From positions 11,039 through 75,038 of the forward strand of contig DYOB01000002.1 in NCBI GenBank assembly GCA_020720765.1: a stretch of DNA of 64,000 nucleotides. The letters run 5' to 3'. The notes under the pieces are model-generated. The model did no database searches and was not told the origin of the DNA. It saw only the letters and a list, made by a program, of their open reading frames with translations. The translations under genes and the position numbers were made by a program. This DNA is from Borreliella garinii (GTDB lineage: Bacteria > Spirochaetota > Spirochaetia > JABEVK01). Within the stretch, counting starts at the first letter, position 1, and the number at the start of each line of letters is the position of its first letter. Shown here piece by piece: positions 10,124 through 59,579 of this stretch.

Positions 10124-10782
10124 ACGCAGTTTTTGAGTCAGGGTATGCAAAAGTTTCACTTATCGCCCACACCTGTTTACTAATTTTACTCGTGATTCTT
10201 CTTCCACGCCAGGTTCAATATCAAGAGTTTCAGGTTTCCCTCGTTGCAGATACACCTCTTCAAACAGGAGCAGGCAACCAAAGCAGTCCTTATAATTATG
10301 ACTCTGAGAAACTCCGGGTTCCTGGACTTAGGGAATCCCTACCGTCGATGATTATTCCGGAACCCGAACGGCTTGACTATAAATCAGCAGCCTTGCCCAA
10401 CGACTCAACACCAACCTCAACAAACGAAACCGTTAATTTTGAATTTTCTGCCGATGAAATTCTTTTTGAAAACGAAAACACCGCTGAAATTTCAAAACTA
10501 TCAAACACCCAAGCTGAATGGGAATCTGGCGGCGGAATGCTTAGAGACTCCCTTGATTATTCTGATCTAAGTAAGTTGACCCTGACACAAAGTATACGTC
10601 TTAGAGTAATTCTCAACGTGTCCAAAGAAGGTCTAATTTTAAGTTTTTCAGGCGCGCAAACAGGAAATACTGAAATTGATGAATCCCTTTCGACCTTTAT
10701 CAGGAAACTTTCTTTCAGGCCGGCAGACCAAGATTATTCAGCTATTCTACTACTTACTCTTCAACCTGGAGATGCCTTTTGA
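10120..10782 (+). CDS. TonB/TolA-like energy-transducer protein.
   Basis: 220 aa. The N-terminal TM anchor contains an S-x3-H motif (SLIAH), as in TonB/TolA. A Pro/Thr-containing linker is followed by a C-terminal domain matching the TonB-C pattern (IRLRVILNVSKEGLILSFSGAQTGNTEIDESLSTFIRKLSFRP). ATGA overlaps join it to both exbD and tamB. Confidence 0.65.
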   Translation: MNAVFESGYAKVSLIAHTCLLILLVILLPRQVQYQEFQVSLVADTPLQTGAGNQSSPYNYDSEKLRVPGLRESLPSMIIPEPERLDYKSAALPNDSTPTSTNETVNFEFSADEILFENENTAEISKLSNTQAEWESGGGMLRDSLDYSDLSKLTLTQSIRLRVILNVSKEGLILSFSGAQTGNTEIDESLSTFIRKLSFRPADQDYSAILLLTLQPGDAF

Positions 10783-15020: not shown

Positions 15021-17633
15021 ATGAAAAAATTACTTTGGACCCTGGGCTTTTTCTTGGCAACCATGGTTTCGGGATATTCCCAGGAAGAGCCTGAAGCATC
15101 GACGTGGTATTTGGAAAAACCTATACGTGAAATTAAGTTTGACGGTCTCCGTTCGGTGAGCGGAACAGAACTTGATTCCCTGGTTAAACCCTACATTGGA
15201 CAAAAATTTAACGACGTTCTTTTCCGCGAGCTTCAAACCACACTTTATGGTCTTGATTACTTTGAAGGCTTTATTAGGCCGGAAGTGCAGAAAGCAGATC
15301 CCGAGGGGAATTCAATAGTTTTGATTTTTTACGTCCAGGAGAAACCTTCTATCAAGGAAATCCGTTTTATCGGAAACACCAGATTATCGACACAAGAATT
15401 GAGAGAAAAAATCAGTATAAAAGCCGACGATCTTTTAAGCAGTCCGAAAATTCGCCTCGATGAGCGGGCTTTAAGGGATTTTTATATCGAGAAGGGCTAT
15501 ACAACGGCAAGGATAGGCAGCGAAGTCGAAACCCTCGAGAATGTCAACAAAGTCATTCTTACTTTTAAAGTTGAGGAAGGAAATCAAACCCTTGTTAAAT
15601 CCATCACCTTTGAAGGGATCTCTTTTGCAACTGAAGGTAGCCTTCGAGGAGTCTTAGCCAGCAAACAACAGGCCTTTTTTGATTCTGGAATCTTTAAGGA
15701 AATCAACCTGGTTCAGGATAAAAATAATATACACGCCTATTACTGGGATAGAGGATACGTTGATGCAAAAGTTTTGGAAATACGGCGCCCTACGACGCTC
15801 AATCCTGAAACCCAGCGAGTGGAAATGGACTTGGTCTTCGTTATTAGCGAGGGTGACCTCTTTACTTATGGAAATACAACCTTTGAAGGGAACGGTATAT
15901 TTTCGGATGAAGAGCTTGGTCTCCTTGTAAAACACGTTCCTGATACGATTCTCAGCAAACAAAAAACCGACCTTGATTACCAGAGGATTCTCGACCTGTA
16001 TTATGAAAATGGATATATTTTTAATACGATAGAGCGCGAAGAAATCCGTGATGGCTCCATCGTCAACTTCGTGATTAAAATTATTGAACGACCTCGGGCA
16101 CATATTGAAAATATTATTGTCCGGGGAAATACTAAAACCCATGAAAATGTCATACTCCGTGAAATCCCCCTTGAGCCGGGTGACGTTTTCAGCAAATCAA
16201 AGATTATCGAAGGTATACGAAACCTCTACAACCTTCAGTATTTTTCAACTGTAAATCCTGAAACCCCCCAGGGCAGCGCGGATGGATTAATGGATGTTGT
16301 TATTTCTTTAGAAGAGGCAAATACCGCCGAGATCCTTTTCGGTTTGGCCTTTAGCGGTTCTACAGATTTCCCTGTATCAGGCCAATTGAAATGGCAGGAT
16401 AGAAACTTCCTTGGCCGAGGTCAGACATTAGGTGTTGAGGCCAATGTTTCTCCGGTTCAACAAAGCCTTTCTGCAAACTTTTCCGACAGTTGGGCTTTTG
16501 ACCAAAGACTTACATTGGGTGGATCGTTTTCTATAGGCCACTATTATCGAACTGGGATAGACCAGGACGTTGCCTTTCCTTTTTACACAGACGACTATAT
16601 CCCAGATCCTTACGACAACCATACCTATGTTTTTACTACTCCGACAACATATGGTCCAATAACGTATCAACCCGGCCAAGTATTTCCGGGTGTACCCGAT
16701 GCAACAGAGATCAGTACCTATAACCTTAAACTACAATACCAGTACGACCAGGAAAACGGCATTTTAAAAAGCGGTAAGAACTCAATGACCCTGGATGAAT
16801 GGTCTTTTTCCTTGGGTCTTAATACTGGCTATTCGCTTTTTACATGGCTTGGAAGGTTTATTTTCGGGACAGGTTTAAACTCAACCTTACAATTTGTGAC
16901 CTACGATTCGACAATTTACCGCCCTGCCAACGAATCCTTAAGGGAAAACCTTAACGCATGGATTTTTGAGAACTCCTGGTCTTCAAGGGCTTTTTGGGAT
17001 ACAAGGGATTTTATCTATAACCCTGAAATGGGAACGCTTTTAGGTTTTTCTTATACTGTTATGGGTGGATTCCTCGGTGGTTCAGCGCACTTTACCCGTT
17101 TTCAGATCAAAGGTGAGGCCAACTATAAGCTCGTTAATATCGAACTTACCGACTGGTATACCTATAAACTCATAGCCAGGGTCCGTTCGGTTATGTCCTT
17201 TATTTCTGAACCTCTTGGTGGCCCCGGTGAAATAGTTGCTCAGCCAAAACATTTGCTCTATGTTGATGGAATGACTGCTGGACGCGGTTGGAGGCCTACG
17301 AGTTCATTACAAAACGGTACCAGTTCTTGGTCTATAAACTTCGAATTCCGAATGCCAGTTGTAGAATCATTACTTTGGTTCGATACCTTTTTTGATATCT
17401 TCAGTATTAAACATGAGAGTACGCCCTTACTCCCGCTAAGCCTGCAAGACCTCTATTTAAGTTATGGTTTTGGGCTAAGGGTCACAAACCCCCAGTTACC
17501 CATTGGTCTGTATTTGGCTAAAACTTTCCGAGTAGACGAGGCAAACTCCGTTGTTTGGCAATCTGGAGATGGTATCTTTGGTTCGGATATTGATATGCGC
17601 TTAATTTTAACGTTTGGGTTTGATCTATATTAG
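15021..17633 (+). CDS. bamA: Outer membrane protein assembly factor BamA (Omp85).
   Basis: 870 aa with a signal peptide, POTRA-like repeats (IREIKFDGLRSVSGTEL..., IKEIRFIGNTRLS..., IENIIVRGNTKTHENVILREIPLEPGDVFS) and a C-terminal beta-barrel domain. Confidence 0.9.
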   Translation: MKKLLWTLGFFLATMVSGYSQEEPEASTWYLEKPIREIKFDGLRSVSGTELDSLVKPYIGQKFNDVLFRELQTTLYGLDYFEGFIRPEVQKADPEGNSIVLIFYVQEKPSIKEIRFIGNTRLSTQELREKISIKADDLLSSPKIRLDERALRDFYIEKGYTTARIGSEVETLENVNKVILTFKVEEGNQTLVKSITFEGISFATEGSLRGVLASKQQAFFDSGIFKEINLVQDKNNIHAYYWDRGYVDAKVLEIRRPTTLNPETQRVEMDLVFVISEGDLFTYGNTTFEGNGIFSDEELGLLVKHVPDTILSKQKTDLDYQRILDLYYENGYIFNTIEREEIRDGSIVNFVIKIIERPRAHIENIIVRGNTKTHENVILREIPLEPGDVFSKSKIIEGIRNLYNLQYFSTVNPETPQGSADGLMDVVISLEEANTAEILFGLAFSGSTDFPVSGQLKWQDRNFLGRGQTLGVEANVSPVQQSLSANFSDSWAFDQRLTLGGSFSIGHYYRTGIDQDVAFPFYTDDYIPDPYDNHTYVFTTPTTYGPITYQPGQVFPGVPDATEISTYNLKLQYQYDQENGILKSGKNSMTLDEWSFSLGLNTGYSLFTWLGRFIFGTGLNSTLQFVTYDSTIYRPANESLRENLNAWIFENSWSSRAFWDTRDFIYNPEMGTLLGFSYTVMGGFLGGSAHFTRFQIKGEANYKLVNIELTDWYTYKLIARVRSVMSFISEPLGGPGEIVAQPKHLLYVDGMTAGRGWRPTSSLQNGTSSWSINFEFRMPVVESLLWFDTFFDIFSIKHESTPLLPLSLQDLYLSYGFGLRVTNPQLPIGLYLAKTFRVDEANSVVWQSGDGIFGSDIDMRLILTFGFDLY

Positions 17634-39087: not shown

Positions 39088-40682
39088 ACTCGGGTTTTAC
39101 CAAGTTTTTGAAGGAAGAGTTTGAACTTATCAGCTTCTGAAACGTATCTCTTCATTAAGATGTGAAGAGATTTTTTCTGGTGTTGGTTCCAAATGATCTC
39201 TTCTCCTTCGCAGATGAAAGCTTGGTCGCCAAAAGAACAGCCTTCTACCAAGGGCTTAAACCAAAGTTTACCGTTTTCAAAATAGAATTCTCCCAGTGCA
39301 GGAGTATTTTGGATCCGTATGGGTACACCTTTTATATCACCTAAAACTTTCCTTTCCTGGTCATGAAATTTAAACAGGCCACGTCCGCCGGCTGTGTTTT
39401 GAAAGAGAAAATCATCCGTCCATAGTTCTAAATAATAAACATTCTCTTCGGATCCCAGGTTCGCAGGTGCAGAACGTGAGACAGGTGCGACTGTCTGTCT
39501 TTTTTCTATTCGTGCTGATGGTTGTTTTGAAATCGAGGTTGCTACACTTGAGGTTCTTGTCGCGTTGGTTGTGCTCGCATTTCTTGCTGTACTTGCCGTT
39601 CTTTGGTTTTCTATTCGTTTTCTTGCTAGGGCTGGAGATACATAATGACCGGGTTGGGCACGGTGTTGAACAAGGCGGACAAAGAGGAAGATCATCAACG
39701 CAACTAAGAGAATTGCGACAATAATTAAAATGACAATCTGTGGAGAAATCGAGCCACCGTCTTCTCCAGTATAATTCAAAGGAAGTCTCACTTTATCTGG
39801 GAAAGCTCTGAAATTATCCTCAAAACCCAGCTCCACAAGCAAATCTAGATTTCCAGGTACTGCAGGTGCGTTTTTCCAGTATAAGGAAAGTGTGACGCTT
39901 TTAGAGGAATTCGGCGAAACAGAAATAGTTGTCGGATTATCGAGGACGGAATCACCGTTAATCTTCACAGAATTGAGTTTAAGCACCATTCCATCACCGT
40001 TGAAATTTTCCACCTTTATGGGAAAAGTTATATTTCGGCCCTGTATACCCAAGTCAGAAGGGAAGGTAATTCTAGGGCTACCGAGAAACCTGTTCGCAAA
40101 CTCGGGAGAATTTTCGAAAGCGGTTACAGGAAGTCGGGAAGACCAAAGTTGATTGAGGTCAAACTCAGGTTGTGCACCATCAAAAGGAATAAGAGCAATT
40201 TTAAAACTCCAACGATTTCTGTTGGCTTGCGTTAGAAAACGTTCAAGGGAATCCTTCCATTTTTTCTCTTCAGAACCTCCTGGACTCTTGCCATCCATAA
40301 TAAGAACGATGACCTTACTTTTATCATTTGCAAGCGATTGTATATAATCGAAGGTAAAGTTCATCGTTTTGGGTAGATCGGGAAGTACCGTTTCTGCTGG
40401 AACGCGGTTTAAATTGATAAGAAAATTTTCTATTTCATTCTTATCAAAAACTATCTGACGGTACATCTGGCGCGGATCATTTGCCATCCCGATAAGGTGA
40501 AACTCATCAAGTTTTTGACTCTTTAGATAATCTTTCAAAATAACGTTCAGAAAGACACTCATAATATTATTTCTTGAACTTTCAAGAATCGGCCCGAGGT
40601 CAAGAACCACGATAAAATCTTTAGGTTCCGCAAAAGCTGGGAGAACGTTGAGTAGTGCCAGTAACAGAAATCCCTTTTTCAT
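39084..40682 (-). CDS. Bitopic membrane protein with a signal peptide, a periplasmic degenerate VWA-like domain, one TM helix, a Ser/Thr/Ala-rich linker and a cytoplasmic C-terminal domain that weakly resembles FHA.
   Basis: 532 aa. Signal MKKGFLLLALLNVLPAFA; DFIVVLDLGPILESS...KVIVLIMDGKSPGG (a VWA-like beta-alpha pattern without a canonical MIDAS site); TM helix IVILIIVAILLVALMIFLFVRLV; low-complexity linker RTASTARNASTTNATRTSSVATS. Its start overlaps the greA stop by 4 nt. Confidence 0.55.
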   Translation of the reverse strand: MKKGFLLLALLNVLPAFAEPKDFIVVLDLGPILESSRNNIMSVFLNVILKDYLKSQKLDEFHLIGMANDPRQMYRQIVFDKNEIENFLINLNRVPAETVLPDLPKTMNFTFDYIQSLANDKSKVIVLIMDGKSPGGSEEKKWKDSLERFLTQANRNRWSFKIALIPFDGAQPEFDLNQLWSSRLPVTAFENSPEFANRFLGSPRITFPSDLGIQGRNITFPIKVENFNGDGMVLKLNSVKINGDSVLDNPTTISVSPNSSKSVTLSLYWKNAPAVPGNLDLLVELGFEDNFRAFPDKVRLPLNYTGEDGGSISPQIVILIIVAILLVALMIFLFVRLVQHRAQPGHYVSPALARKRIENQRTASTARNASTTNATRTSSVATSISKQPSARIEKRQTVAPVSRSAPANLGSEENVYYLELWTDDFLFQNTAGGRGLFKFHDQERKVLGDIKGVPIRIQNTPALGEFYFENGKLWFKPLVEGCSFGDQAFICEGEEIIWNQHQKKSLHILMKRYVSEADKFKLFLQKLGKTRV

Positions 40683-43378
40683 AAGAATTCCGCCTTTTCA
40701 ATTTTTATAACTTGATAGTCACAAAGTCTTTCATTAATGGTAAATTTGAGTTCATCACCTTTTTTATTACCGAGAAGTTTATCGCCAAGGGGTGATAAGT
40801 AAGAAATGATATTGTCTTCAGGTTTTGATTCCCAGGGACCTAAAATGATAAATATCTCTTCCTGGTTGGTGAGTTTATTAAGTAGAACTGCACGAACTCC
40901 GAAAACTATTTTTTCCATATCAACATCTGCCGGGTCAATTACGGTTGCTGTTTCCAAATCACGGCTGAGCTGGCTGACAGTTGAATTGAGGAAACCTTGC
41001 TTTTCTTTTGCGGCGTGGTATTCAGCGTTTTCTTTAAGATCTCCCAAGGCCATAGCTTCACCGATTTCCTTGGAATTCTGTGGAATTTCAACATCCACAA
41101 GGTGTGAAAGCTCCTTGCTCTTTTTATTATACATGGCACGTGTCGTCAGTAAGCCTTTTCTGCTTGCTATGCTTCGTGTCGAACTGTCTTCACGTTGAAT
41201 AAGATGGGGGAATTTCAGACCGACTTTCTGACGGAGAAGGTTGGTTTCGTTCGCTGGTATTTCTTTAATATCCTGAACTAAGGTAAAAATACGCAAGACA
41301 CTTTCCTCGGAGGCTTCATCTAGGTAGGTTTCCATCAATTTGTCTTTCAAGAGGATGATGAGAATATTTTTATGTTGTCGTTTGGCGCTTGTCAGTTCTT
41401 TTTTATTCGCAATTTCCCTTCCAACCTGTTCAAGAATGTTTAAAAGGTTGATGATGACCTTCTCCTTTGAAATGGAGTAGGTTTCCCAGGAAACATTTTC
41501 CATTAAATACCGGGCGAGCCATATAAGTGCTTCTTTTTGTTCCCTGAACCTATCCATGATATTTCGGAAAAGTTTCACAACGAAGGTTTTCTTCCCGTTG
41601 CTCAAAAGTTCTTCGATCATACTTTTAGCGGGTGCAATCATGATTAGACGTATATAGTACTCTGGCCAATTCTCAAGTTCTTTCCTGATATTGGAAAGGA
41701 AGAGCCTTTTTATCTCGGTATTTTTCATATTTCGGTAAATGTCTTCGAGATTCTCGATTTCAGCAAAATATTCTTTAAAGGTCTTATTGATAGGAAGGTT
41801 TAAAAAGGCATATTTCTTTGAAAGCCTTTCAAGGATTAAAAAAGCACTTAAGACTTCGTCGTTAACTTTGTTGAGTTTTAGATAGCCGACAAAGCTGTTA
41901 AAAATCTCGGAAAAAAAGTCGGTTTCAACTTTATCGTCCTCAACCATCTCTTCAAGAATCTCGATGCGTTTGTAGAAATCCTTTTCAACTCTAAACTTGT
42001 TGTAGGCTTTCTCTTCAAAGGTAACAGGTTGGCTCCGCACCATAAAGAAGTCGGGTTTGTCTGGGTCAACGGCGTAATCCGGACTTTTCTTCAGAAGGGT
42101 CCTGGCGTGCGAACTCCAGTTGGTCCACTCTGAGGTCGTCAAAATTGAAGGAGTCAATGCCGCACGTATGATCTTAAAGTCGGCATTATTCCCGAAGGAG
42201 CGTATAATGGTTTTTAACGCCCAATCGTGGTCTTCCTTGATCTTCTTTTTCAAGTCATCTTTTTTTGTGACGGCAATTTTTACACGTATATCCTCGGTCG
42301 AAAGGTTCTGCAGAGCTTCAACAGCCATTTTTTGAGCCATAGTATGCCCTCGCCTTTTCTCGAAGTCGATAACGAATTCCTGTTCTTTTTCGCGTATTTC
42401 AGAAATTCTTCCGACACCCCAAGTATTATGAAATACAAAGTTACCTTTAGCAAAGGCCAGGTGCTTTTGAAAATCCCGCATAGCTTCATCCATACTTCGG
42501 AAGGACTGCGAAAGACCTGAAAGGCGGATGTAGTCTTCGATTTTAGGGTTATCATGGTATTTCTTTTTTAGGATTTCTATGATCTCCCTTCTCACAAAGG
42601 CAGTCTTCCCTTCGTGTGTCTGCATTCTCATTAAGATTTCCAGTGCGTTATCAAAAGCTTGATTTTTCAAAGCTACCGGGTAAAGCCCTTCTAATAGGAC
42701 TAAGGATCTTTCCTTATCCCACCCTAATGTTTTACTCACTTTTGTTTCTATCTGCGCAAAATATTCGTATTCGTTAGGAATAAGGTCTAGAAGTTTGTTC
42801 CAAACATCCAAGAGCCTTGCAAAGTTTTTCTTTAAAAGAAAACGATGGATAGCTTTTTTGTAAAATTCAGTGGATTTGGAAGGATCACCGGTTTTATCGT
42901 ATTTTTGGGCTAGCAGAAGAACGGTTTCGGCGTCTTCCATATCAACGCGTACAAGCCTCTCTTCAAGTTCGGTAACTTTTTCTTCATTACCTTCCTGGCG
43001 GTAAAGGTCTACAAGAGTTTTAAGGGCAAACTTATTTTCACCTGAGTCAAGAATATTTTTACACAAATGTTCAACAAGACTTGTTTTCTGGTTTTGACTG
43101 AACAGCGATACAAGTTTTATTAGCTGGGAATCGTCGAGACTCTGGCGTTTTAAACTGATCATCCCCGAAAAATACATCGCAGCTATGGTGCTTTTGTTTT
43201 CCTGGAGGTGTTCTTCACAGAGTTGAAAAACCTCGGATACATTGTCACTGTTGAGAATTTCCTGGAAGATGGATTCTAATTCTTTTAGGTGTCCCAAGTT
43301 GTAAGTGGCAATGGTGGCCCTGGTCCATTTTTCCTCGTGAAGCAGTCCGTTTATTTTATCCAACACTGAATCCGCCAT
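40679..43378 (-). CDS. greA: Long spirochete-type transcription elongation factor GreA: an N-terminal domain of about 740 aa with unknown function, followed by a canonical C-terminal GreA domain.
   Basis: 899 aa. The C-terminus carries the GreA coiled-coil and FKBP-like motifs (EAMALGDLKENAEYHAAKEKQGFLNSTVSQL...VIDP; KIVFGVRAVLL...GDELKF...YQVIKIE). The N-terminal 700+ aa is helical/TPR-like and I recognise no family in it. Confidence 0.8.
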   Translation of the reverse strand: MADSVLDKINGLLHEEKWTRATIATYNLGHLKELESIFQEILNSDNVSEVFQLCEEHLQENKSTIAAMYFSGMISLKRQSLDDSQLIKLVSLFSQNQKTSLVEHLCKNILDSGENKFALKTLVDLYRQEGNEEKVTELEERLVRVDMEDAETVLLLAQKYDKTGDPSKSTEFYKKAIHRFLLKKNFARLLDVWNKLLDLIPNEYEYFAQIETKVSKTLGWDKERSLVLLEGLYPVALKNQAFDNALEILMRMQTHEGKTAFVRREIIEILKKKYHDNPKIEDYIRLSGLSQSFRSMDEAMRDFQKHLAFAKGNFVFHNTWGVGRISEIREKEQEFVIDFEKRRGHTMAQKMAVEALQNLSTEDIRVKIAVTKKDDLKKKIKEDHDWALKTIIRSFGNNADFKIIRAALTPSILTTSEWTNWSSHARTLLKKSPDYAVDPDKPDFFMVRSQPVTFEEKAYNKFRVEKDFYKRIEILEEMVEDDKVETDFFSEIFNSFVGYLKLNKVNDEVLSAFLILERLSKKYAFLNLPINKTFKEYFAEIENLEDIYRNMKNTEIKRLFLSNIRKELENWPEYYIRLIMIAPAKSMIEELLSNGKKTFVVKLFRNIMDRFREQKEALIWLARYLMENVSWETYSISKEKVIINLLNILEQVGREIANKKELTSAKRQHKNILIILLKDKLMETYLDEASEESVLRIFTLVQDIKEIPANETNLLRQKVGLKFPHLIQREDSSTRSIASRKGLLTTRAMYNKKSKELSHLVDVEIPQNSKEIGEAMALGDLKENAEYHAAKEKQGFLNSTVSQLSRDLETATVIDPADVDMEKIVFGVRAVLLNKLTNQEEIFIILGPWESKPEDNIISYLSPLGDKLLGNKKGDELKFTINERLCDYQVIKIEKAEFL

Positions 43379-52256: not shown

Positions 52257-52878
52257 TGGCCCAGCTGGCAGCGGGAAGAGTACCTTGGCAAGAAAACTGG
52301 CTGAAATTCTTGGTTGGCTGCATATCAATTCAGGACTTTTTTATAGAAAAGCCGGTTCGATGCACCATGAACCAGTGCTTACAGAAGAAAGTAAAAAACT
52401 CCTGCTCCATAAATTTCAGAAATACCTCGACGAAAATATAGAAAAATTACCGCAAACCCTTGATAAAGAGGAAGAACTCAAAACAAGTTTATCCGGTAAC
52501 AAGGCGAGTTTAGTAAGTGCCATACCCGAATTGAGAGAACAGATCAATTCTTTCCTACGAAAAAAATCAGAAGGAAAAAATATCGTGGCAGAAGGACGAG
52601 ACATGAGTACCGAGGCTTTTCCAGAAGCTGAAATACAGGTTTATCTCGATGCAAAACCCGAAGAAAGGGCCCAAAGACGTTGGAAGGAAGAAGGCGGAGA
52701 CCCTGATAAAATTCTGAAAGAAATTCTAGAACGGGACGACAAGGATAAAAATAAAGCCGTAGGCGCTCTAAGGGTATCTCCTAATGCCTGGATCATTGAG
52801 AACACGTACTTGACCATCGACCAACTTTGTGAGAAAGTGTTGGTAAAACTGAATAAGATGACAGGACAAGGGGAATAA
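52240..52878 (+). CDS. cmk: Cytidylate kinase.
   Basis: P-loop ILTIDGPAGSGKSTLARKLA and the Cmk LID/NMP-binding pattern. Confidence 0.85.
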   Translation: MILTIDGPAGSGKSTLARKLAEILGWLHINSGLFYRKAGSMHHEPVLTEESKKLLLHKFQKYLDENIEKLPQTLDKEEELKTSLSGNKASLVSAIPELREQINSFLRKKSEGKNIVAEGRDMSTEAFPEAEIQVYLDAKPEERAQRRWKEEGGDPDKILKEILERDDKDKNKAVGALRVSPNAWIIENTYLTIDQLCEKVLVKLNKMTGQGE

Positions 52879-54554
52879 TGAATATGTTGGATGACCTCAG
52901 CCAGAGCCAGCTCCAAGAGGACTTTCTTAAAAACATGCCGAAACTTGAGGAAGGAAACCTTATAGACGGCATCGTAGTTGAGGTTAGAGAAAACGCTATT
53001 ATAGTGGACGTGGGATTAAAATCCGAAGGCATCATTCCTCGTGAAGAATTTGACGAACTGCCGAAAATCGGTGAAAAATTCAAGCTTAAACTTTTAAAAA
53101 GAGAAACAAACGATGGCTCTGTTCACGTTTCTAAGAGACTTGCCGACGGCCTATATTATAGAAAGGTTCTTGAAGAAGCATCGAAAGATAAAAAACCTGT
53201 GAGTGGAAAAATTACCTCCACCATTAAGGGCGGATATCAGGTAGACCTGGGTTTTGGATTCAGCGGCTTTTTACCGCAGTCCAAGGCTGACGCCGAAAGG
53301 ATTGAAAATCCTGATGACCTTTTAGGAACGAAGGGCAACTTTTATATAGAAAAACTGGAACTGGGGCGAAAAACAAACATCGTTCTTAACCGGCGGGATC
53401 TTATGATCGAAGAGATCAAGAAACGCCGAGAAGATTTTTTCACCAAGATTCAAATAGGCGACGAAGTAGAAGGAACAGTGAAGAGCTTCACAAGTTTTGG
53501 TGCCTTCGTAGACCTCGGCGGATTTGATGGTCTCCTTCATATCAACGATATGAGCTGGGGGCATATGACGAGTCCCCGGGAAATTGTGAAAAAGGGTGAC
53601 GTGATCAAACTTAAAGTCATTCGCATCGACCCGGAAACAAAACGCATCAATCTCAGCATCAAACATTTCTATGAAGATCCTTGGGCGAGTTTCGAAGATC
53701 ACTTCCATATAGATGATGTGGTTTCCGGAACTGTGACTAAACTCACCGATTTTGGTGCTTTTATTCAGATAGCTGAAGGTATAGAAGGGCTTGCTCATAT
53801 TTCTGAATTCTCGTGGGTTAAAAGGGTAAGCCATCCTAAAGAATTCCTGAAGATCGGTGATTCTGTCAATGCTAAGATCCTTAGTTACGATCTACAACAA
53901 GGGAGAATCTCCCTCGGTCTCAAGCAAGTTGAGCAAAATCCTTGGGAACAGATGGAAGACAGCTATCCCATAGGTAAAGTCCTTGCAGTACCAGTGAAAA
54001 AAATTACTTCAGCCGGTGCGTTTGTAGAATTGGGCGGGGATATGGAAGCATTCCTTCATGTCGACGATATCAGTTGGACTAAAAAAGTAAAAAATCCTTC
54101 TTCCGAGCTTACTGAAGGTCAAACTATCGAAGTAAAAATACTTGAAGTCGACCCGGAATCCAGGCGCATTAAAGTTGGCATGAAACAAGTATCGGACGAT
54201 CCATGGAATGCGCTTAAATCATCCTATCACCGAGGCAGTTCTATCACCGGTACCATCACGAGTAAAACTGAATTCGGACTTTTTGTTCGCGTACCAGGAG
54301 GCCTGGAAGGATTGATTCCTAAGTCTCAAATTACTGATAACCGTGATGAATCTGCTGATGTTGTTATGGAAAAATTTAATGTTGGTGACTCTATAACTGC
54401 CGCCATATTAGAAGTTTCCCCCGAGAAACAAAAAATGTCCTTGAGCCTGAAAGACTATATGCGTAAAAAAGAAAAAGAGGAAATTAGCCGTTTTATCCAC
54501 GAGGACGACGGTTCTTCCGGCTTCACTCTGGGTGATATGATTAAAAAGGACTAG
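52878..54554 (+). CDS. rpsA: 30S ribosomal protein S1.
   Basis: 558 aa with six S1 domain repeats (GxV...FGAFV...GLLHIS... recurring). Its start overlaps the cmk stop in a TAATG arrangement. Confidence 0.9.
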   Translation: MNMLDDLSQSQLQEDFLKNMPKLEEGNLIDGIVVEVRENAIIVDVGLKSEGIIPREEFDELPKIGEKFKLKLLKRETNDGSVHVSKRLADGLYYRKVLEEASKDKKPVSGKITSTIKGGYQVDLGFGFSGFLPQSKADAERIENPDDLLGTKGNFYIEKLELGRKTNIVLNRRDLMIEEIKKRREDFFTKIQIGDEVEGTVKSFTSFGAFVDLGGFDGLLHINDMSWGHMTSPREIVKKGDVIKLKVIRIDPETKRINLSIKHFYEDPWASFEDHFHIDDVVSGTVTKLTDFGAFIQIAEGIEGLAHISEFSWVKRVSHPKEFLKIGDSVNAKILSYDLQQGRISLGLKQVEQNPWEQMEDSYPIGKVLAVPVKKITSAGAFVELGGDMEAFLHVDDISWTKKVKNPSSELTEGQTIEVKILEVDPESRRIKVGMKQVSDDPWNALKSSYHRGSSITGTITSKTEFGLFVRVPGGLEGLIPKSQITDNRDESADVVMEKFNVGDSITAAILEVSPEKQKMSLSLKDYMRKKEKEEISRFIHEDDGSSGFTLGDMIKKD

Positions 54555-54557
54555 TTT

Positions 54558-55490
54558 TTGCCAGGTGACGAGGGAAACACTCAAGAATTATCTTTAGTGT
54601 TTCATTCTTCTACTATGAAAACTTTTTTAGTTCTTGCTGAAAAGTACGCTTTATCAGATAGTCCTGTTTTGCTTCTTGGTGAATCCGGTTCTGGTAAGGA
54701 AACACTTGCTTTTTGGATGCATAAACACAGCCGCAGAAGCAATGGGCCCTTTAAGGTACTCAATTGCGCTGCCTTACCCGAATCACTCGCCGAAAGTGAA
54801 CTTTTTGGCTATGAGAAGGGTGCTTTTTCCGATGCATACCAAGATAAAATGGGCCTTTTTGAACAAGCCGAAGGTGGAAGCCTTTACCTTGATGAAGTAG
54901 GGGAGTTGAGCCTTGCTGTCCAGGCGAAAATTCTACGGTTGGTTTCTTCGGGTGAACTCACAAAACTTGGAAGTGAAAAAACGAAAAATATTGATGTTAG
55001 AATTCTATCTTCCGCCTCTCAATTTCTCGAAGAAAAAGTCGAATCTGGAAATTTCCGAAGCGATCTTTTTTTTCGTCTTGGTGTTTTTCTTTTAAATATT
55101 CCTCCATTAAGGTCAAGGCTTGAAGACATTGTTCCTCTTGTCGAATCATTTTTCAGCTTCTATCAAGAAAAATACCAAAAAACAAAAATGGAACTGCCGG
55201 CATTTTTATGGAAAGATATTTTATCCCATTCATGGCCGGGAAATATCAGGGAACTTAAAAATTGGGCCGAACGCTGTGTGATTTTAAATCAGCCTTTAAA
55301 ACCAGGTTTCAGCCAAACAGGTGAGATATTGAATCCAAACTTGAGACAGGCAGTAGATATTTTTAAAAAAGAGTATATTCTTAAGATTCTTGAAAAACAT
55401 AGGGGAAATAAGACCCGTGCTTCAAAGGAGCTGGGAGTTCAGAGAACGTATTTGATTAAAATTTGTAAAGAAATGGGAGAGGAGAGTTAA
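54558..55490 (+). CDS. Stand-alone AAA+ protein related to sigma-54 activators (bacterial enhancer-binding proteins), with a C-terminal Fis-type HTH. It has no N-terminal sensor or receiver domain, and its GAFTGA motif is degenerate (GAFSDA).
   Basis: Walker A GESGSGKE; ESELFGYEKGAFSDA; Walker B LYLDEVGEL; R-finger/sensor II region FRSDLFFRLGVFLLNIPPLRSRLEDI...WPGNIRELKN; HTH TRASKELGVQRTYLIKICKEMG. The track start is TTG 54558; a more likely start is ATG at about 54615 (MKTFLVLAEKY). Confidence 0.8.
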   Translation: MPGDEGNTQELSLVFHSSTMKTFLVLAEKYALSDSPVLLLGESGSGKETLAFWMHKHSRRSNGPFKVLNCAALPESLAESELFGYEKGAFSDAYQDKMGLFEQAEGGSLYLDEVGELSLAVQAKILRLVSSGELTKLGSEKTKNIDVRILSSASQFLEEKVESGNFRSDLFFRLGVFLLNIPPLRSRLEDIVPLVESFFSFYQEKYQKTKMELPAFLWKDILSHSWPGNIRELKNWAERCVILNQPLKPGFSQTGEILNPNLRQAVDIFKKEYILKILEKHRGNKTRASKELGVQRTYLIKICKEMGEES

Positions 55491-56168
55491 ATGGAAAAAG
55501 AAGAGAATGGTTCTTTAATGACGGGTGTCACGAATTTTATACAAAAAAATCGTATACCCATTTTTGCTCTGGCAGGAATCATCGTTGTTGGACTAGTAGG
55601 TTTAGCAGTGTTTGGAATTCTTAAGACTACCGGTGATATGCAAGCTACCGAGATCGTGGACAGGGCATCCTTGAGGTTGGAAAAGTGGAAATCCCTTGAA
55701 GATACCGACCCGGTTAAAGCCGAGCATGAAACCGAAGCCATGGCTATCCTTAAACCTTTTCTAGATAATCCGTCTTCAGCCGCAGCTGGTGATAAGGCCT
55801 TATTCCTTGCGTCTCAGATTCAAGAAGAGAAAGGGAATATCGAGGAACAGGTTAACCTCCTCAATAAGATTCTGGAATTATTTCCGTCCTCTTTCCGCAA
55901 AATCGAGGTAAGTCTTAAACTGGTGAGCATCTATCAAAAACAGGGTAAAGTGTCAGAGGCCTTTATCATATTAGATAAACTTTTAGCTGATACCACAGTA
56001 CCGGGCTTTTTTAAAGAAGAAATCCTTTTTCAAAAGGGCAGTATGGTTGAAACAAGCGATAAAACAAAGGCTTTGGAATATTATAAAGAACTTGTTGACC
56101 TTTACCCTCTCAGCGATTGGACAAAATTGGCAAGGTCCCGTATAATTTACCTGGAACTCACGACCTAA
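55491..56168 (+). CDS. Membrane-anchored TPR-like protein.
   Basis: 225 aa with one N-terminal TM helix (IPIFALAGIIVVGLVGLAVFGIL) followed by helical TPR-like repeats. It directly abuts the upstream gene. Confidence 0.5.
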   Translation: MEKEENGSLMTGVTNFIQKNRIPIFALAGIIVVGLVGLAVFGILKTTGDMQATEIVDRASLRLEKWKSLEDTDPVKAEHETEAMAILKPFLDNPSSAAAGDKALFLASQIQEEKGNIEEQVNLLNKILELFPSSFRKIEVSLKLVSIYQKQGKVSEAFIILDKLLADTTVPGFFKEEILFQKGSMVETSDKTKALEYYKELVDLYPLSDWTKLARSRIIYLELTT

Positions 56169-56180
56169 ATAGGAGAAAAA

Positions 56181-58598
56181 ATGACCGCTAAAGGTGTTAT
56201 TCGTTATATTAATCAAAAAAAAATTTACGGATTTATTCTTGGCGGTCTTATTTTCACCTTTATCACTATCACTTACCTTAATCCGAATACACCCTTCCTT
56301 TTTCAAATTGACCAGCGTCTGAGCGATATTTATTTCGGATTCAGGTCTCTGACAGAGACTCGGACTACCCAAGAAAACGTAAGCATGACGAGTCTTAGAA
56401 ACGATGTCTCAAGAGACTTGATTCTCGTAGGTATCGACGATTACAGCCTTGAAACCTTCGGCAGGTGGCCTTTTCCTCGTTCTGTCCACGGGAAATTTCT
56501 TACAAACCTAGCACGCATTCGAGATCAAAACCAAAGGGAAAATTCGGTTCTACTCGATATATTTTTCAGTGAACCAACACAAGACGCTGTTCAGGACGCT
56601 CTTCTTGAAGCTGGAATGTCTGAAAATAAACGGACTTTCCTTGAAACCGTTTTACATACGGGAGAAGGTCCTCAAGATTATAACAATAAAATGTTTGAGC
56701 GTTTGAATTCCCTTATCGAAGCTTCAGGCGAACTCCACCGTGTTCAAGGGGATCATGAGTTGATGACGCCATTCTATTCTTTAGAGGCACCTCTTTCAGC
56801 GTTTGGAAGGCAGGTTAAAGGGTTCGGGCATGCTATTTTCTTACCGGATTCGGACGGTGTTTTTAGACGTCAGAAACTCATCCTCAAGGCGTCACGCCTG
56901 GTTGATGAAGTGCCATTAGAGGCATTTCAGCCGGGTGAAAAACTTGAAAATCTCCAACGGTACGCTTATGTCAATAAAAATGGTGTACTAGTTTCCATAT
57001 TTGACGATTTAGACGCACAAAGACTTGAACAACTAAAAACACAGCTTCCGGAGTTGGCCTTATACCGTTTTGAAGACACAGATGGCGATGGGACCCCTGA
57101 AACTGAAAATATCTATATTAAAAAATTCCAGGATTACTTTATTCCATCCATCACCCTTTCTTTAGCTGCACAATACTTCCATAAACAACTCGATGATTTG
57201 GAAATAATTATCGGGGACGCAATCATCATTAAAGAACCACAAACAATTAACCCGGATTCAGGTGAATTGATTCCCTACCAAATTCCGCGCACCACCTACG
57301 GAAAAGACGAAGAGGGAAACGAAATAGCATTTGTAGAGTATGAGCCTGTTCCTGAAATCCGAATTCCTATAGACGAAGAAGGTCAAATGTTGATCAACTT
57401 TATCGGTGCCAGAAGTTCTCCAAGGGACAATGAATACCGGACCTACGATTATAAATCCTATGCCCAATACGCTGGCCGAAATGTTTCCAAGGATCCTTCT
57501 ACATGGGGTCCTACTCTGGTACTAGGGAACAAAATCCTAATGGTTGGACCTTTCAGTTCGGGTATGGCCGATGATGAGAAGACAACACCGTTTGGTTTAA
57601 TGTATGGAGTGGAAATTCATACAAATGCTTTGAATACGATCCTCATGAATAATTTTATCCAAAATATGCCTGTGGGTTTTACCCTTGTTTTAGCGGCAGT
57701 ACTCATTTTTATCATGGCTTTTTTAGCGAGCCGTTTGCCGACCTTTATTTCTCTTCCAGCCGGGATAATAATGATTTTTATTTATTTTATGACGGCAGTT
57801 TTAATCTTTGATTATTCTTCTTATTATGTGCCCTTTGCAGCCGGTGCACTCGGTATCAGTATGACTTTTCTTTCGATCCTCGCTTATAGGGTTATCACCG
57901 AAGAATCGGACAAAAAAAGAATTCGTGGAATGTTTTCAAAATATGTAAGCGCTGAAGTTGTCAATCAAATGATGGATCACCCTCCTGAGTTGGGAGGGGT
58001 GGATAAAGAATTAACCGTACTTTTCTCGGATATTCGTGGTTTTACCACTCTAAGTGAAAGTATGTCCGCGCAAGAGCTTGTGAACCACCTCAATGTTTAC
58101 CTTTCTGCCATGACAGATATTATCATGGAGTACAGGGGGACACTCGATAAATATGTTGGTGATGAAATCATGTGTTTCTGGGGAGCCCCATTGGACGAAA
58201 AGGAACACGCCTTGCTTTCCGCACAGTGTGCCTTAAGGCAGATGGAAGTTCTAGGTCAACTCAATTCACAGTGGCCTGAAAACAGAAAAATAAATATAGG
58301 CATCGGTCTTAATAGCGGGATCATGACAGTGGGTAATATGGGATCAAAAGGTCGAATGAACTATACCCTCATGGGGGATAACGTCAACCTTGGGGCGCGG
58401 CTGGAAGGTACAAATAAGGAATATAAAACCAACGTTATTATCAGTGAAAATACCTATGCGCTTATAGCAGACCAAGGTCCTATTGTGCGGGAACTCGATA
58501 ATATTAGGGTGAAAGGCAAAAATAAACCCGTGGTCATCTATGAACTTCTGGATTTTAAACAGGGATTCTATCCTCCAGGAAAATTACCCCGTCAATGA
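56181..58598 (+). CDS. Class III adenylate/guanylate cyclase with an N-terminal CHASE2 extracytoplasmic sensor domain.
   Basis: 805 aa. N-terminal TM helix plus periplasmic CHASE2-like region, then three to four TM helices. C-terminal CYCc catalytic domain (LTVLFSDIRGFTTLSE...YVGDEIMCFWGAP...GIGLNSGIMTVGNMGS...YTLMGDNVNLGARLE). Confidence 0.85.
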   Translation: MTAKGVIRYINQKKIYGFILGGLIFTFITITYLNPNTPFLFQIDQRLSDIYFGFRSLTETRTTQENVSMTSLRNDVSRDLILVGIDDYSLETFGRWPFPRSVHGKFLTNLARIRDQNQRENSVLLDIFFSEPTQDAVQDALLEAGMSENKRTFLETVLHTGEGPQDYNNKMFERLNSLIEASGELHRVQGDHELMTPFYSLEAPLSAFGRQVKGFGHAIFLPDSDGVFRRQKLILKASRLVDEVPLEAFQPGEKLENLQRYAYVNKNGVLVSIFDDLDAQRLEQLKTQLPELALYRFEDTDGDGTPETENIYIKKFQDYFIPSITLSLAAQYFHKQLDDLEIIIGDAIIIKEPQTINPDSGELIPYQIPRTTYGKDEEGNEIAFVEYEPVPEIRIPIDEEGQMLINFIGARSSPRDNEYRTYDYKSYAQYAGRNVSKDPSTWGPTLVLGNKILMVGPFSSGMADDEKTTPFGLMYGVEIHTNALNTILMNNFIQNMPVGFTLVLAAVLIFIMAFLASRLPTFISLPAGIIMIFIYFMTAVLIFDYSSYYVPFAAGALGISMTFLSILAYRVITEESDKKRIRGMFSKYVSAEVVNQMMDHPPELGGVDKELTVLFSDIRGFTTLSESMSAQELVNHLNVYLSAMTDIIMEYRGTLDKYVGDEIMCFWGAPLDEKEHALLSAQCALRQMEVLGQLNSQWPENRKINIGIGLNSGIMTVGNMGSKGRMNYTLMGDNVNLGARLEGTNKEYKTNVIISENTYALIADQGPIVRELDNIRVKGKNKPVVIYELLDFKQGFYPPGKLPRQ

Positions 58599-59335
58599 AA
58601 AGTTTAGTTTTCACACCGATCTTGTTTTTCCTTTTCTCCTGCGGGCTGGATTCAGTGAACTATTTAAATAATCCAACTGTTATTTCACAAACAGAAAATT
58701 CTATCCTTAAATGGCAGTATATTCCCGGCAACTATTCTGGAACAAACTTTCAGGGTTACGAACTTTTTTATAAATTTTATGTGGAAAATGTCAGTATCAA
58801 TTATGGACTGAACGATGAAAATTCTTTAAGCACTAATAACGGGGTAGAAGTTGTACCGACACCTGAAAGACTCCTTTCCCTTGGGTACCAGAGGCTCAAT
58901 CTCAGTCAGTACACTATGAATATTGAACCGTTGGTTTCTATAAACGTTTCTGATTTAGGAACAACCATCAACTATGAACTAACGTTTTCCAACCTTATCA
59001 ATGCTACTATCGACGTAAAAGTAGACAATCCTCCTTTCTTAATAGGTACAGAAAATGGGACTGGAATTATTCTGACAAATTTAGAAATCCGAAGAGGAGC
59101 TAGGAACTCCGCAGGAACCGAGTTCAGAAGATTCTGGGAAGTTTACGATTCTGTGCTCAGAGGTACACAGCCCAATCTGGAACCGAGTTTGACCACTGCG
59201 TTAACCTCGTCACCTCCAGCAATTTGGGTCGTTGCCTTTATCATGGCCTACGGCTGGAGCCCTGAGAACGGACGTGAAATCTCTGAACCCGTTCTCTTGG
59301 GTACAGTGAAAACTATGACTCTGAACTGGCCTTAA
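58595..59335 (+). CDS. Hypothetical lipoprotein.
   Basis: 246 aa with a lipoprotein signal peptide and lipobox (MKSLVFTPILFFLFSCG). I recognise no family. Confidence 0.55.
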   Translation: MKSLVFTPILFFLFSCGLDSVNYLNNPTVISQTENSILKWQYIPGNYSGTNFQGYELFYKFYVENVSINYGLNDENSLSTNNGVEVVPTPERLLSLGYQRLNLSQYTMNIEPLVSINVSDLGTTINYELTFSNLINATIDVKVDNPPFLIGTENGTGIILTNLEIRRGARNSAGTEFRRFWEVYDSVLRGTQPNLEPSLTTALTSSPPAIWVVAFIMAYGWSPENGREISEPVLLGTVKTMTLNWP

Positions 59336-59336
59336 A

Positions 59337-59579
59337 ATGAATATAGTTTGGATCATTTTAGAGTTTATCCTAACGGCTTGGATTAGTGGAATTCTCTTTT
59401 TTTATCTCAGCAGATCTTCAAATAAAATTTTTTTTTCTTATATAGTCACCGGGGTTGTTGGATCGTCTTTAGGTTCGATAATTGGTATTTATCTTTTTAA
59501 TATCAACACGCCTTTTGTTTTTACCGGTATTGGAGCCCTTTTAAGTTGTTTTTTATGGTACACCTTTAATCACGAATAA
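59337..59579 (+). CDS. Small integral membrane protein, possibly of the GlsB/YeaQ/YmgE transglycosylase-associated family.
   Basis: 80 aa with two to three TM helices and Gly-rich helix motifs (GVVGSSLGSIIG, FTGIGALLS). Confidence 0.45.
   Translation: MNIVWIILEFILTAWISGILFFYLSRSSNKIFFSYIVTGVVGSSLGSIIGIYLFNINTPFVFTGIGALLSCFLWYTFNHE

Follow-up and report, generated by a model that had tools for sequence, protein, structure and literature searches.

The reading frame that directly follows rpsA in the 64-kb stretch of DNA analysed here (the window) encodes a protein with the AAA+ domain and helix-turn-helix (HTH) of a bEBP-type sigma-54 activator, devoid of a sensor domain and with a GAFSDA version of the L1 loop. 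The question raised by this locus is whether such a protein still acts together with sigma-54 RNA polymerase and what might control its activity. The initial annotation considered it to be an orphan that may have become independent of sigma-54, with the protein encoded next to it as a candidate partner for control in trans. Its observation on the reading frame is correct, and its interpretation is in part supported.

A sensor-less AAA+ protein encoded behind rpsA

The reading frame is genuine and the same 310-aa product is present in the NCBI and Logan gene calls, whereas the JGI call starts from an ATG codon at position 54615 and yields 291 aa. Since the alignment to the AAA+ domain begins at residue 8–14, the TTG start used in the longer version is favoured. 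This start codon is separated from the rpsA stop codon by three nucleotides, in agreement with the previously noted position of the gene. No terminator-like site was found between rpsA and the reading frame, and the Shine–Dalgarno-like site that lies within the 3'-terminal part of rpsA (Table 1) implies that the two genes are co-transcribed and translationally coupled. A scan of the 64-kb window against Rfam gave no match.

Pfam searches recognized the Sigma54_activat domain (residues 14–178; E=7e-58; 195.5 bits, cut-off 20.2), AAA_lid_14 (residues 185–245; 50.3 bits) and HTH_8 (residues 271–298; 29.9 bits, cut-off 22). No N-terminal sensor or receiver domain was detected in the protein by Pfam and there is no room for one, so that the domain content is AAA+ plus HTH only, as had been proposed. 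The AlphaFold2 model of the protein (pLDDT 91.7) matched NtrC1 in Foldseek and could be superimposed on the AAA+ domain of the latter over 231 residues at 1.1–1.2 Å.

With the exception of sensor I, all ATP-binding and catalytic residues of the window protein are kept (Table 1). The Walker A residues G41, G44, G46 and K47 are invariant across all six GAF-less proteins described below, and the switch Asn was assigned following the glutamate-switch model (PMC7175178). In sensor I, the A-A-T-N consensus of the family and of bEBPs is replaced by S-S-A-S, owing to a T-to-A change at residue 153 and an N-to-S change at residue 154; this combination is unique among the ∼240 homologues sampled.

Table 1. 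Features of the rpsA-linked locus, with positions given relative to the first nucleotide of the window.
Feature	Position	Strand	Basis
rpsA (ribosomal protein S1, five S1 domains), conserved upstream neighbour	52878..54554	+	Pfam; synteny
Shine–Dalgarno-like AAGGA within rpsA 3' end, 7 nt before TTG	54546..54550	+	sequence
bEBP-homologue gene, 310 aa, GAF-less: AAA+ sigma-54-interaction domain, lid, Fis-type HTH	54558..55490	+	ORF, Pfam, AlphaFold2, Foldseek
Walker A GESGSGKE, residues 41–48, intact	54678..54701	+	alignment, sequence
LNCAA with switch Asn N69 (= PspF N64), kept	54759..54773	+	alignment
L1 loop GAFSDA, residues 88–93, full length, Phe kept	54819..54836	+	alignment, sequence
Walker B LYLDEVGEL, residues 109–117, D112 and E113 intact	54882..54908	+	alignment, sequence
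Degenerate sensor I region ILSSASQ	55002..55022	+	alignment, sequence
FRSDLFFRL, both arginine fingers R167 and R173	55053..55079	+	alignment, sequence
Sensor II WPGNIRELKN, R231	55233..55262	+	alignment, sequence
Fis-type helix-turn-helix NKTRASKELGVQRTYLIKICKEM	55407..55475	+	Pfam HTH_8; conserved across clade
YfgM-like protein, one N-terminal transmembrane helix plus TPR repeats, conserved downstream neighbour	55491..56168	+	Pfam, hydropathy
CHASE2 fused to class III nucleotide cyclase, 805 aa, conserved cluster member	56181..58598	+	Pfam, alignment

The conserved cluster and the loss of the GAF domain

The protein turned out not to be an orphan. It is a positional orthologue of a conserved spirochaetal bEBP with the GAF-AAA+-HTH architecture: rpsA is followed by the bEBP gene in each of the 20 related Spirochaetia loci examined, and genes for the TPR protein and the CHASE2 cyclase come next in all 18 for which the available sequence reaches beyond the bEBP gene. 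The orthologues divide into 14 GAF-bearing and six GAF-less proteins, the window protein included. The former are ∼500 aa in length, display GAFT(D/N)A in the L1 loop and possess a cNMP-type GAF domain, which is closest to the cAMP-sensing GAF domain of Lcd1 (PDB ID: 5w10).

A search gave 120 spirochaetal homologues of the CHASE2 cyclase, and one is also found in the cultivated Gracilinema caldarium. In the alignment, the substrate-specifying positions of the cyclase encoded in the window are occupied by Lys657 and Thr729. Such a Lys/Thr pair at the class IIIb cyclase positions, which we take to be the signature of adenylate cyclases, indicates that the enzyme is an adenylate cyclase. To our knowledge, this Spirochaetia cluster, linking a CHASE2 adenylate cyclase to a bEBP with a cNMP-type GAF domain, has not been described. 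It represents a candidate route from cAMP to sigma-54-dependent transcription, and the cultivable relatives include Oceanispirochaeta.

The TPR protein (225 aa), the start codon of which abuts the bEBP stop codon, does have the membrane anchor ascribed to it, a single hydrophobic helix (residues 26–44) positioned after an invariant Arg, in addition to the TPR repeats. The YfgM-type domain PF09976 was matched in eight of the nine orthologues (best E-value 4e-12), and the protein is probably anchored with its N-terminus inside the cell, its TPR domain being periplasmic and ∼20 residues cytoplasmic. These properties bear on the proposal that the window protein is a sensor-less bEBP of the PspF/HrpS kind, controlled in trans by this neighbour. 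The absence of a cis sensor, the direct abutment of the two genes and their adjacency in the 18 loci mentioned above are in line with such control. However, the TPR protein occurs equally beside the GAF-bearing orthologues and therefore did not originate as a substitute for the latter's lost sensor; its YfgM-type assignment and the few residues predicted to face the cytoplasm speak against a regulatory contact as well. Furthermore, the window protein scores far below the cut-offs of the PspF equivalogs (TIGR02974, 226.5 versus 443.55 bits; PRK11608, 180.6 versus 529). We consequently regard trans control by the TPR protein as quite improbable.

The six GAF-less proteins form a monophyletic clade with the window protein at its base (bootstrap 100/100), and the GAF domain was lost once. 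Along with this loss, the clade members have in common the T-to-S change in L1, the loss of the sensor I Thr-Asn pair and a 9-residue deletion in the linker. The window protein is best explained as a domain-truncated orthologue of the bEBP that relatives possess with cNMP-type GAF, AAA+ and HTH domains, encoded within the cluster of rpsA, bEBP, YfgM-like TPR protein and CHASE2 adenylate cyclase genes, and the GAF sensor appears to have been precisely deleted in the ancestor of the window lineage. The clade has evolved faster, as its bEBP core shows 44% identity versus 56%, while the divergence of rpsA is similar; Pfam scores are likewise lower (195 and 166 bits versus 236–246). In the five sister proteins the Walker B Asp-Glu pair is replaced by His-His and the switch Asn by Asp, while Walker A, L1, the arginine fingers, sensor II and the HTH are all retained. 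The window protein preserves 85 of the 108 family-invariant positions, more than any of the sisters (63–76). A search of 5.8 billion proteins yielded none more closely related to the window protein, and an equivalent search with the L002 sister protein showed the His-His clade to comprise only 4–5 clusters.

Domain loss, a weak TTG start, the faster rate and the sisters' loss of Walker B could all be expected of a decaying remnant without function, which we nevertheless consider highly improbable. Six diverged genomes have kept the reading frame uninterrupted, and the Walker B replacement is a conserved His-His pair and not random drift. Moreover, the invariant columns of the clade alignment (66 of 284, or 23%) cluster at the functional motifs and within the HTH, and a pseudogene was rejected on account of this focus. 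The clade is under purifying selection, although this is a qualitative statement only, since dS is saturated (dN 0.25) in the closest GAF-less pair, L002/L087.

Possible sigma-54 partnership and catalytic competence

The GAFSDA reading of the L1 loop was confirmed, but its proposed meaning, independence of sigma-54, was not. Both substitutions are known individually from validated sigma-54 activators, T4-to-S from BkdR (GAFSGA) and G5-to-D from FlgR (GAFTDA), and Desulfovibrio vulgaris DVU0151 (GAFSEA) and DVU2106 (GAFTDA) possess sigma-54 regulons, as do GAYTDA EBPs of the same species. Asp or Asn at the fifth position of L1 is the norm in the rpsA-linked family and common among the ∼240 homologues sampled; an unrelated 501-aa receiver-type bEBP (P0295) even combines GAYSDA with normal catalytic motifs. 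Within the GAF-less clade the consensus GA[FY]SDA is fixed in all six members although only 23% of the columns are invariant, which argues that the loop is still under selection. Consequently, GAFSDA alone is no proof of a lost sigma-54 partnership. There are, though, other grounds for the suspicion that sigma-54 activation has been lost: the clade evolves faster, the sensor I Thr-Asn pair is gone and the sisters carry His-His in Walker B.

Neither the 64-kb window nor the ∼10 kb that follow on its right-hand side contain rpoN, and no bEBP paralogue was seen in the window or its flanks. Genes rpoD and dnaG are located beyond the right-hand end of the window. A search with the pattern TGGCAC-N5-TTGCW (up to two mismatches), which is uninformative about targets elsewhere, revealed no sigma-54 −24/−12 promoter in the window or in 13 related loci from a scan of genome contigs: matches were fewer than expected by chance and none was found at a conserved intergenic position.

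The best explanation, for and against which the case appears to us evenly balanced, is that the window protein is a sigma-54 activator that is unregulated in cis and probably attenuated. The retained ATP-binding and catalytic residues (other than sensor I), the full-length L1 loop and the HTH suggest that the remaining protein most likely still binds enhancer DNA, forms an ATP-driven ring and remodels sigma-54 RNA polymerase. Without its sensor, the activator would escape gating in cis, and its amount would determine its output; this amount would follow the expression of rpsA, given the weak TTG start and the translational coupling to that gene. The GAF domain of NorR, according to PMC2941729, represses the AAA+ domain, and loss of such a domain is hence expected to de-repress the activator. 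On the other hand, ATPase activity and coupling are probably attenuated and the output lowered, since the sensor I Thr-Asn pair is lost and the L1 Thr is replaced by Ser. We thus infer a sigma-54-dependent protein with constitutive but attenuated activity, controlled through its expression level.

This reading as a cis-unregulated activator is favoured by the Pfam matches to Sigma54_activat, the lid and HTH_8, by the intact motifs apart from sensor I, and by the fact that the nearest relatives of solved structure are bona fide sigma-54 activators: the best is NtrC1 (1e-68), followed by NifA, ZraR, FleQ, FlrC and PspF, whereas the sigma-70-type VpsR is far weaker (2e-34). It is disfavoured by the change of both sensor I residues, the faster evolution and lower Pfam scores of the clade, and the lack of a −24/−12 promoter and of rpoN in the DNA inspected for each. 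The sisters' Walker B His-His pair and switch Asp, in addition, suggest that the lineage as a whole is moving away from catalysis.

Possible, but rather doubtful in our view, is the alternative that the window protein has already lost sigma-54 activation and stands at an early stage of a path that was completed in the sisters with inactivated Walker B. It would then be either a DNA-binding regulator that binds ATP but is not driven by it (a repressor or a sigma-70-type factor), or a protein that engages sigma-54 through L1 without catalytic turnover. A precedent is the hydrolysis-defective PspF variant E108Q, which has not lost the ability to engage its target and to remodel it (PMC4132715). 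The changes common to the clade, its accelerated evolution, the missing promoter in the window and 13 related loci, and the five sisters, which combine conserved His-His and Asn-to-Asp replacements with otherwise preserved motifs and purifying selection, would all fit this alternative. The window protein itself, however, retains D112/E113, N69, both arginine fingers and sensor II, and its lead over every sister in family-invariant positions points the other way. Similarity to canonical activators is much above that to VpsR, and in TyrR, DhaR and HupR the L1 loop contains deletions or defective motifs (Francke et al.), whereas here it is intact and strictly conserved.

The conservation of the AAA+ ring interfaces (arginine fingers, sensor II) and of L1 even in the catalytically dead sisters would also be compatible with a structural or modulatory role, in which the protein depends on another bEBP, encoded elsewhere in the genome, to form mixed rings and modulates this partner, as in the case of HrpR/HrpS and FleQ/FleT; co-dependent EBP pairs are known (PMC3105312). 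Nevertheless, such a role is improbable given that the window and its flanks contain no paralogue and that the protein has an HTH of its own.

A further reading, unlikely but worth stating, concerns the six proteins together, which could be a small spirochaete clade on its way from a sigma-54 activator gated by cAMP to a new, non-catalytic type of 'pseudo-bEBP'. The GAF sensor would have been deleted first, changes in sensor I and the L1 Thr would have followed, and the replacement of Walker B Asp-Glu by His-His in the sisters would have come last, with the sigma-54-contacting loop, Walker A, the arginine fingers and the HTH under selection throughout. Pseudo-bEBPs would bind nucleotide as well as DNA, and perhaps also sigma-54, but would not turn over ATP; they might serve as stoichiometric activators, anti-activators or nucleotide sensors. 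A hydrolytic site would then survive only in the window protein.

Taken alone, the window protein is an unremarkable bEBP homologue with tolerated loop substitutions, and its value comes from the context. At one orthologous locus, evolution has produced a natural series, with the window protein as its basal member, that leads from GAF-gated proteins through a sensor-less one altered in sensor I and L1 to proteins with His-His in Walker B. This series could reveal which AAA+ features are dispensable for a sigma-54 activator and how the loss of a repressing sensor is compensated for.

Comparison with known bEBPs

A close counterpart of the window protein is the unnamed spirochaetal family of rpsA-linked GAF-bEBPs (for example those of Oceanispirochaeta, Treponema and Spirochaetaceae MAGs; L003–L016 and L090–L092). 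The two have the same position in the cluster, Asp at the fifth position of L1 and a similar HTH, but the window protein is without the ∼190-aa cNMP-type GAF domain and further differs in the L1 T-to-S change, the lost sensor I, the 9-residue linker deletion and faster evolution. Its AAA+ fold is like that of Aquifex aeolicus NtrC1 (46–48% identity), and with canonical bEBPs (NtrC1, ZraR, NifA, FleQ, FlrC and PspF) it has in common Walker A and B, the arginine fingers, sensor II, the L1 insertion and the C-terminal Fis-type HTH. In contrast to these proteins, it has no regulatory domain, GAFSDA instead of GAFTGA and Ala-Ser instead of Thr-Asn in sensor I.

AAA+ plus HTH without a cis sensor is also the composition of PspF from E. 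coli and HrpR/HrpS from P. syringae. Judging from its PspF score, the window protein is no orthologue of these, and no gene for a PspA- or HrpV-like cytoplasmic inhibitor lies near it; the only nearby candidate is the YfgM-like TPR protein, predicted to be periplasmic. The sigma-70-dependent derivatives TyrR, DhaR, HupR, VpsR and Rhodobacter NtrC are related through the AAA+ domain, but in these proteins L1 is deleted or destroyed, whereas that of the window protein is full length and conserved, with the Phe retained. The window protein is also much closer to NtrC1 than to VpsR. A TyrR-like identity was rejected, since L1 is intact and the NCBIfam score is below the cut-off (TyrR equivalog, 220.9 versus 576; for DhaR, 175.4 versus 551).

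FlgR (Campylobacter/Helicobacter), BkdR (B. subtilis), DVU0151 and DVU2106 are sigma-54 activators that resemble the window protein in having natural L1 variants, but belong to other subfamilies and have other architectures, none being reported with the exact GAFSDA or a degenerate sensor I. FleQ of P. aeruginosa naturally has His in place of the sensor I Asn; its ATPase activity is lowered, yet the protein is still a sigma-54 activator, which shows that replacement of this Asn need not be disabling. FleQ, which is under the control of FleN and c-di-GMP, differs from the window protein in having the preceding Thr, the GAFTGA loop and an N-terminal domain.

The gene downstream of rpsA and its product

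The open reading frame that follows rpsA is real. Its TTG start codon lies 4 nt past the rpsA stop, with an AAGGA Shine-Dalgarno-like site 7 nt upstream, within the end of rpsA. Gene callers differ on the start: the TTG at 54558 (310 aa) is the start in the NCBI and Logan calls, an internal ATG at 54615 (291 aa) in that of JGI. Since the Pfam and NtrC1 alignments begin at residues 8–14, ahead of that ATG, the TTG start is favoured. No domain was found by Pfam N-terminal of the AAA+ domain. With 50 homologues as input, AlphaFold2 gave a model (mean pLDDT 91.7) that fits the AAA+ domain of NtrC1 at 1.1–1.2 Å over 231 residues. The initial annotation's observation of a sensor-less AAA+ and HTH protein of 310 aa, with GAFSDA in the sigma-54-contacting L1 loop and encoded just 3' of rpsA, is thus fully confirmed.

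None of the NCBIfam equivalog cut-offs was reached, those of NorR and NifA included; the protein scored 226 against a cut-off of 443 for PspF, and 221 against 576 for TyrR. The window derives from an uncultured spirochaete. The same genes are present, in identical form, on a JGI metagenome contig (3300000234), in a Logan assembly (SRR1560848) and on a 118-kb NCBI contig. Apart from the protein itself, nothing above 48% identity was found in a collection of 5.8 billion proteins, and the nearest GTDB species representative by ribosomal protein S1 (65% identity) is an uncultured Spirochaetia MAG.

Features of the window and of related loci (bEBP, sigma-54-type enhancer-binding protein)
Feature	Sequence	Position	Strand	Remarks
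bEBP gene	window	54558-55490	+	310 aa
Sigma54_activat	window protein	residues 14-178		Pfam E=7e-58
AAA_lid_14 and HTH_8	window protein			Pfam
L1 motif GAFSDA	window protein	residues 88-93
TPR gene	window	55491-56168
rpsA-bEBP-TPR-cyclase cluster	window	52878-58598
Two small genes after cyclase	window	58595-59579	+	246 aa and 80 aa; no Pfam match
TP_0324_N-domain gene	window	10779-15005	+	1408 aa; domain named from Treponema pallidum protein
Next gene	window	15021-17633	+	870 aa; no Pfam match
Gre-factor-like gene	window	40679-43378	-	899 aa
Sister bEBP gene	L002	9684-10607
Sister bEBP gene	L086	2902-3801
Sister bEBP gene	L087	2894-3814
Sister bEBP gene	L088	2909-3802
Sister bEBP gene	L089	2872-3801
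bEBP gene, independent GAF loss	L010	9667-10617		316 aa; Treponema sp. MAG TD114a_bin7

Elsewhere the window encodes a Gre-factor-like protein of unusually large size, in which the N- and C-terminal domains of GreA/GreB occur together with HTH_GRAD and GRAD_C. The TP_0324_N-domain gene and the gene next to it both lie downstream of exbB/exbD-like genes, with which they may form an envelope system.

A conserved cluster in Spirochaetia

Related loci were fetched via S1, and closer ones via the cyclase, giving 20 Spirochaetia loci. The bEBP gene lies directly 3' of rpsA in all 20, and a TPR gene and a CHASE2 cyclase gene come next in each of the 18 that reach far enough. The window gene therefore belongs, in derived form, to a conserved family and is not the orphan it had been taken for. 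Fourteen of the orthologues are 494–504 aa long and carry an N-terminal GAF domain; their L1 loop reads GAFTDA or GAFTNA in every case and GAFTGA in none. This GAF domain is nearest in sequence to cyclic-nucleotide-binding GAFs, the top match being that of Leptospira Lcd1 (PDB 5w10, 1e-22), which senses cAMP (PMC11800159, PMC8846402), followed by Anabaena CyaB2 and then PDE2, PDE5 and PDE10. In the downstream CHASE2 cyclase, Lys and Thr occupy the substrate-specifying positions. We take this pair, in class IIIb cyclases, to indicate an adenylate cyclase. Because the GAF domain resembles the cAMP-sensing type and the cyclase carries Lys and Thr, the ancestral module looks like one in which a CHASE2 cyclase signals through cAMP to a GAF-bEBP, a link for which synteny and domain type are the sole basis. 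Together with the likeness of its GAF domain to that of Lcd1, conservation of the cluster across Spirochaetia hints at an as yet undescribed path leading from cAMP to sigma-54 transcription.

The cluster of the window was also recorded in loci L003–L016 and L090–L092, as rpsA, a bEBP of cNMP-type GAF form (GAFT[D/N]A), a YfgM-like TPR protein and a CHASE2 adenylate cyclase. Two small genes follow the cyclase gene in the window and may belong to the same module; most of the closest relatives (L086–L091) have called genes of like size in the corresponding place, and sequences similar to that of the 246-aa product occur in L002, L086–L089, L091, L092 and L005.

The TPR neighbour had been put forward as a partner controlling the bEBP in trans. 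It has a single strongly hydrophobic helix (residues 26–44) preceded by an invariant Arg, and eight of nine TPR orthologues give a match to the YfgM-type TPR-like family PF09976 (best E-value 4e-12). E. coli YfgM has an N-in anchor and a periplasmic domain. Being YfgM-like and encoded beside GAF-bearing and GAF-less bEBPs alike, the protein looks like a periplasmic accessory, perhaps serving the CHASE2 sensor, and unlike a cytoplasmic inhibitor substituting for the GAF domain. Control in trans is accordingly a lesser alternative.

Divergence of the GAF-less clade

A short bEBP of 297–309 aa is encoded in all five genomes whose cyclases are closest (57–61% identity), and the GAF form in the next tier (52–54%). 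In a neighbour-joining tree from S1 plus cyclase, these five and the window are monophyletic, with the window sister to the rest (bootstrap 100/100 at both splits). All six proteins share a precise deletion of the GAF domain, GA(F/Y)SDA in L1, loss of the sensor I Thr-Asn (AATN has become SSAS in the window protein) and a 9-residue deletion past the lid. Independently, the same orthologous gene has lost its GAF domain in L010, where the motifs are canonical (GAFTNA, DE and AATN).

At comparable S1 divergence, mean identity of the bEBP core is 44% in the GAF-less clade as against 56% in GAF-bearing relatives, and the Pfam domain score falls from 236–246 bits in the latter to 195 in the window protein and 166 in L002; judged by its sequence, the GAF-less core is evolving faster. 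One could regard the window gene as a functionless relic, a lesser alternative. Yet reading frames are intact in all six genomes, the closest pair has a dN of 0.25 at saturated dS, and the invariant columns (66 of 284) cluster in Walker A, L1, the second arginine finger, sensor II and the HTH, which argues that the gene is not decaying. L1 is invariant at five of six positions, the remaining one being F/Y, and conservation as strict as this speaks for continued contact of the loop with some target.

The window protein retains Walker A (GESGSGKE), the switch Asn (LNCAA), Walker B (LYLDE), both arginine fingers (FRSDLFFRL), sensor II (PGNIRE) and the HTH. Of the 108 positions that do not vary among the other 15 family members, it keeps 85 and the sisters 63–76. 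In the five sisters, of which a search with the L002 protein recovered only four among 5.8 billion proteins, a conserved His-His replaces the Walker B Asp-Glu ([LF][YF][FL]HH[IV]E) and the switch Asn is Asp. Walker A, L1 (GAYSDA in four, GAFSDA in L086), sensor II and the HTH are retained, as are both arginine fingers except in L086. The five are probably ATPase-dead, and remain under selection. The interest of the window protein is moderate and lies chiefly in this evolutionary series.

Sigma-54 and the putative output

No rpoN was found in the window, in about 10 kb past its right-hand end or in any flank read. This region has rpoD, which lies with dnaG some 5–9 kb beyond the mreBCD genes, past the window's right-hand end (L093, the JGI contig 3300000234). 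Matches to −24/−12 promoters did not exceed chance in the window or in the 13 related loci that came from a scan of genome contigs. Spirochaetia as a class are reported to have sigma-54 regulons (PMC12316311), which gives no certainty for the window's lineage.

We see about an even chance that the window protein is a sigma-54 activator unregulated in cis. Repression of the AAA+ domain by GAF is known from NorR-type proteins (PMC2941729), so deletion of the GAF domain should de-repress the AAA+ domain and leave an ATPase that is always on. Changes in sensor I and L1 may attenuate this activity, and output would depend on how much protein is made, as governed by the weak TTG start and by the coupling of translation to that of rpsA. 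The chief competing reading, which we hold only tentatively, is a protein that no longer activates and is a nucleotide-binding, DNA-binding regulator. The His-His sisters point this way, and conservation of their L1 could be explained if a hydrolysis-defective bEBP can still engage its target, as PspF E108Q does (PMC4132715). A protein that works only in mixed rings with a second bEBP is a lesser alternative.

The initial annotation was right to present the protein as sensor-less and atypical, but its reading of GAFSDA, with Thr and the second Gly lost, as a mark of sigma-54 independence finds no support in published work. BkdR, a validated activator, has Ser in place of the Thr, and it is in TyrR, DhaR and HupR that substitutions or deletions wreck the motif (Francke et al. 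2011). The Desulfovibrio vulgaris proteins DVU0151 (GAFSEA), DVU2106 (GAFTDA) and DVU2275 (GAYTDA) all have sigma-54-dependent target operons (Kazakov et al. 2015). Among about 240 homologues retrieved, GAFTDA (53), GAFTNA (26) and GAFTSA (14) are common, and GAYSDA occurs with normal catalytic motifs in one unrelated receiver-type bEBP. More unusual than GAFSDA in the window protein is the change at sensor I; in FleQ, which naturally has His for Asn at sensor I, ATPase activity is lowered and sigma-54 activation is not stopped.
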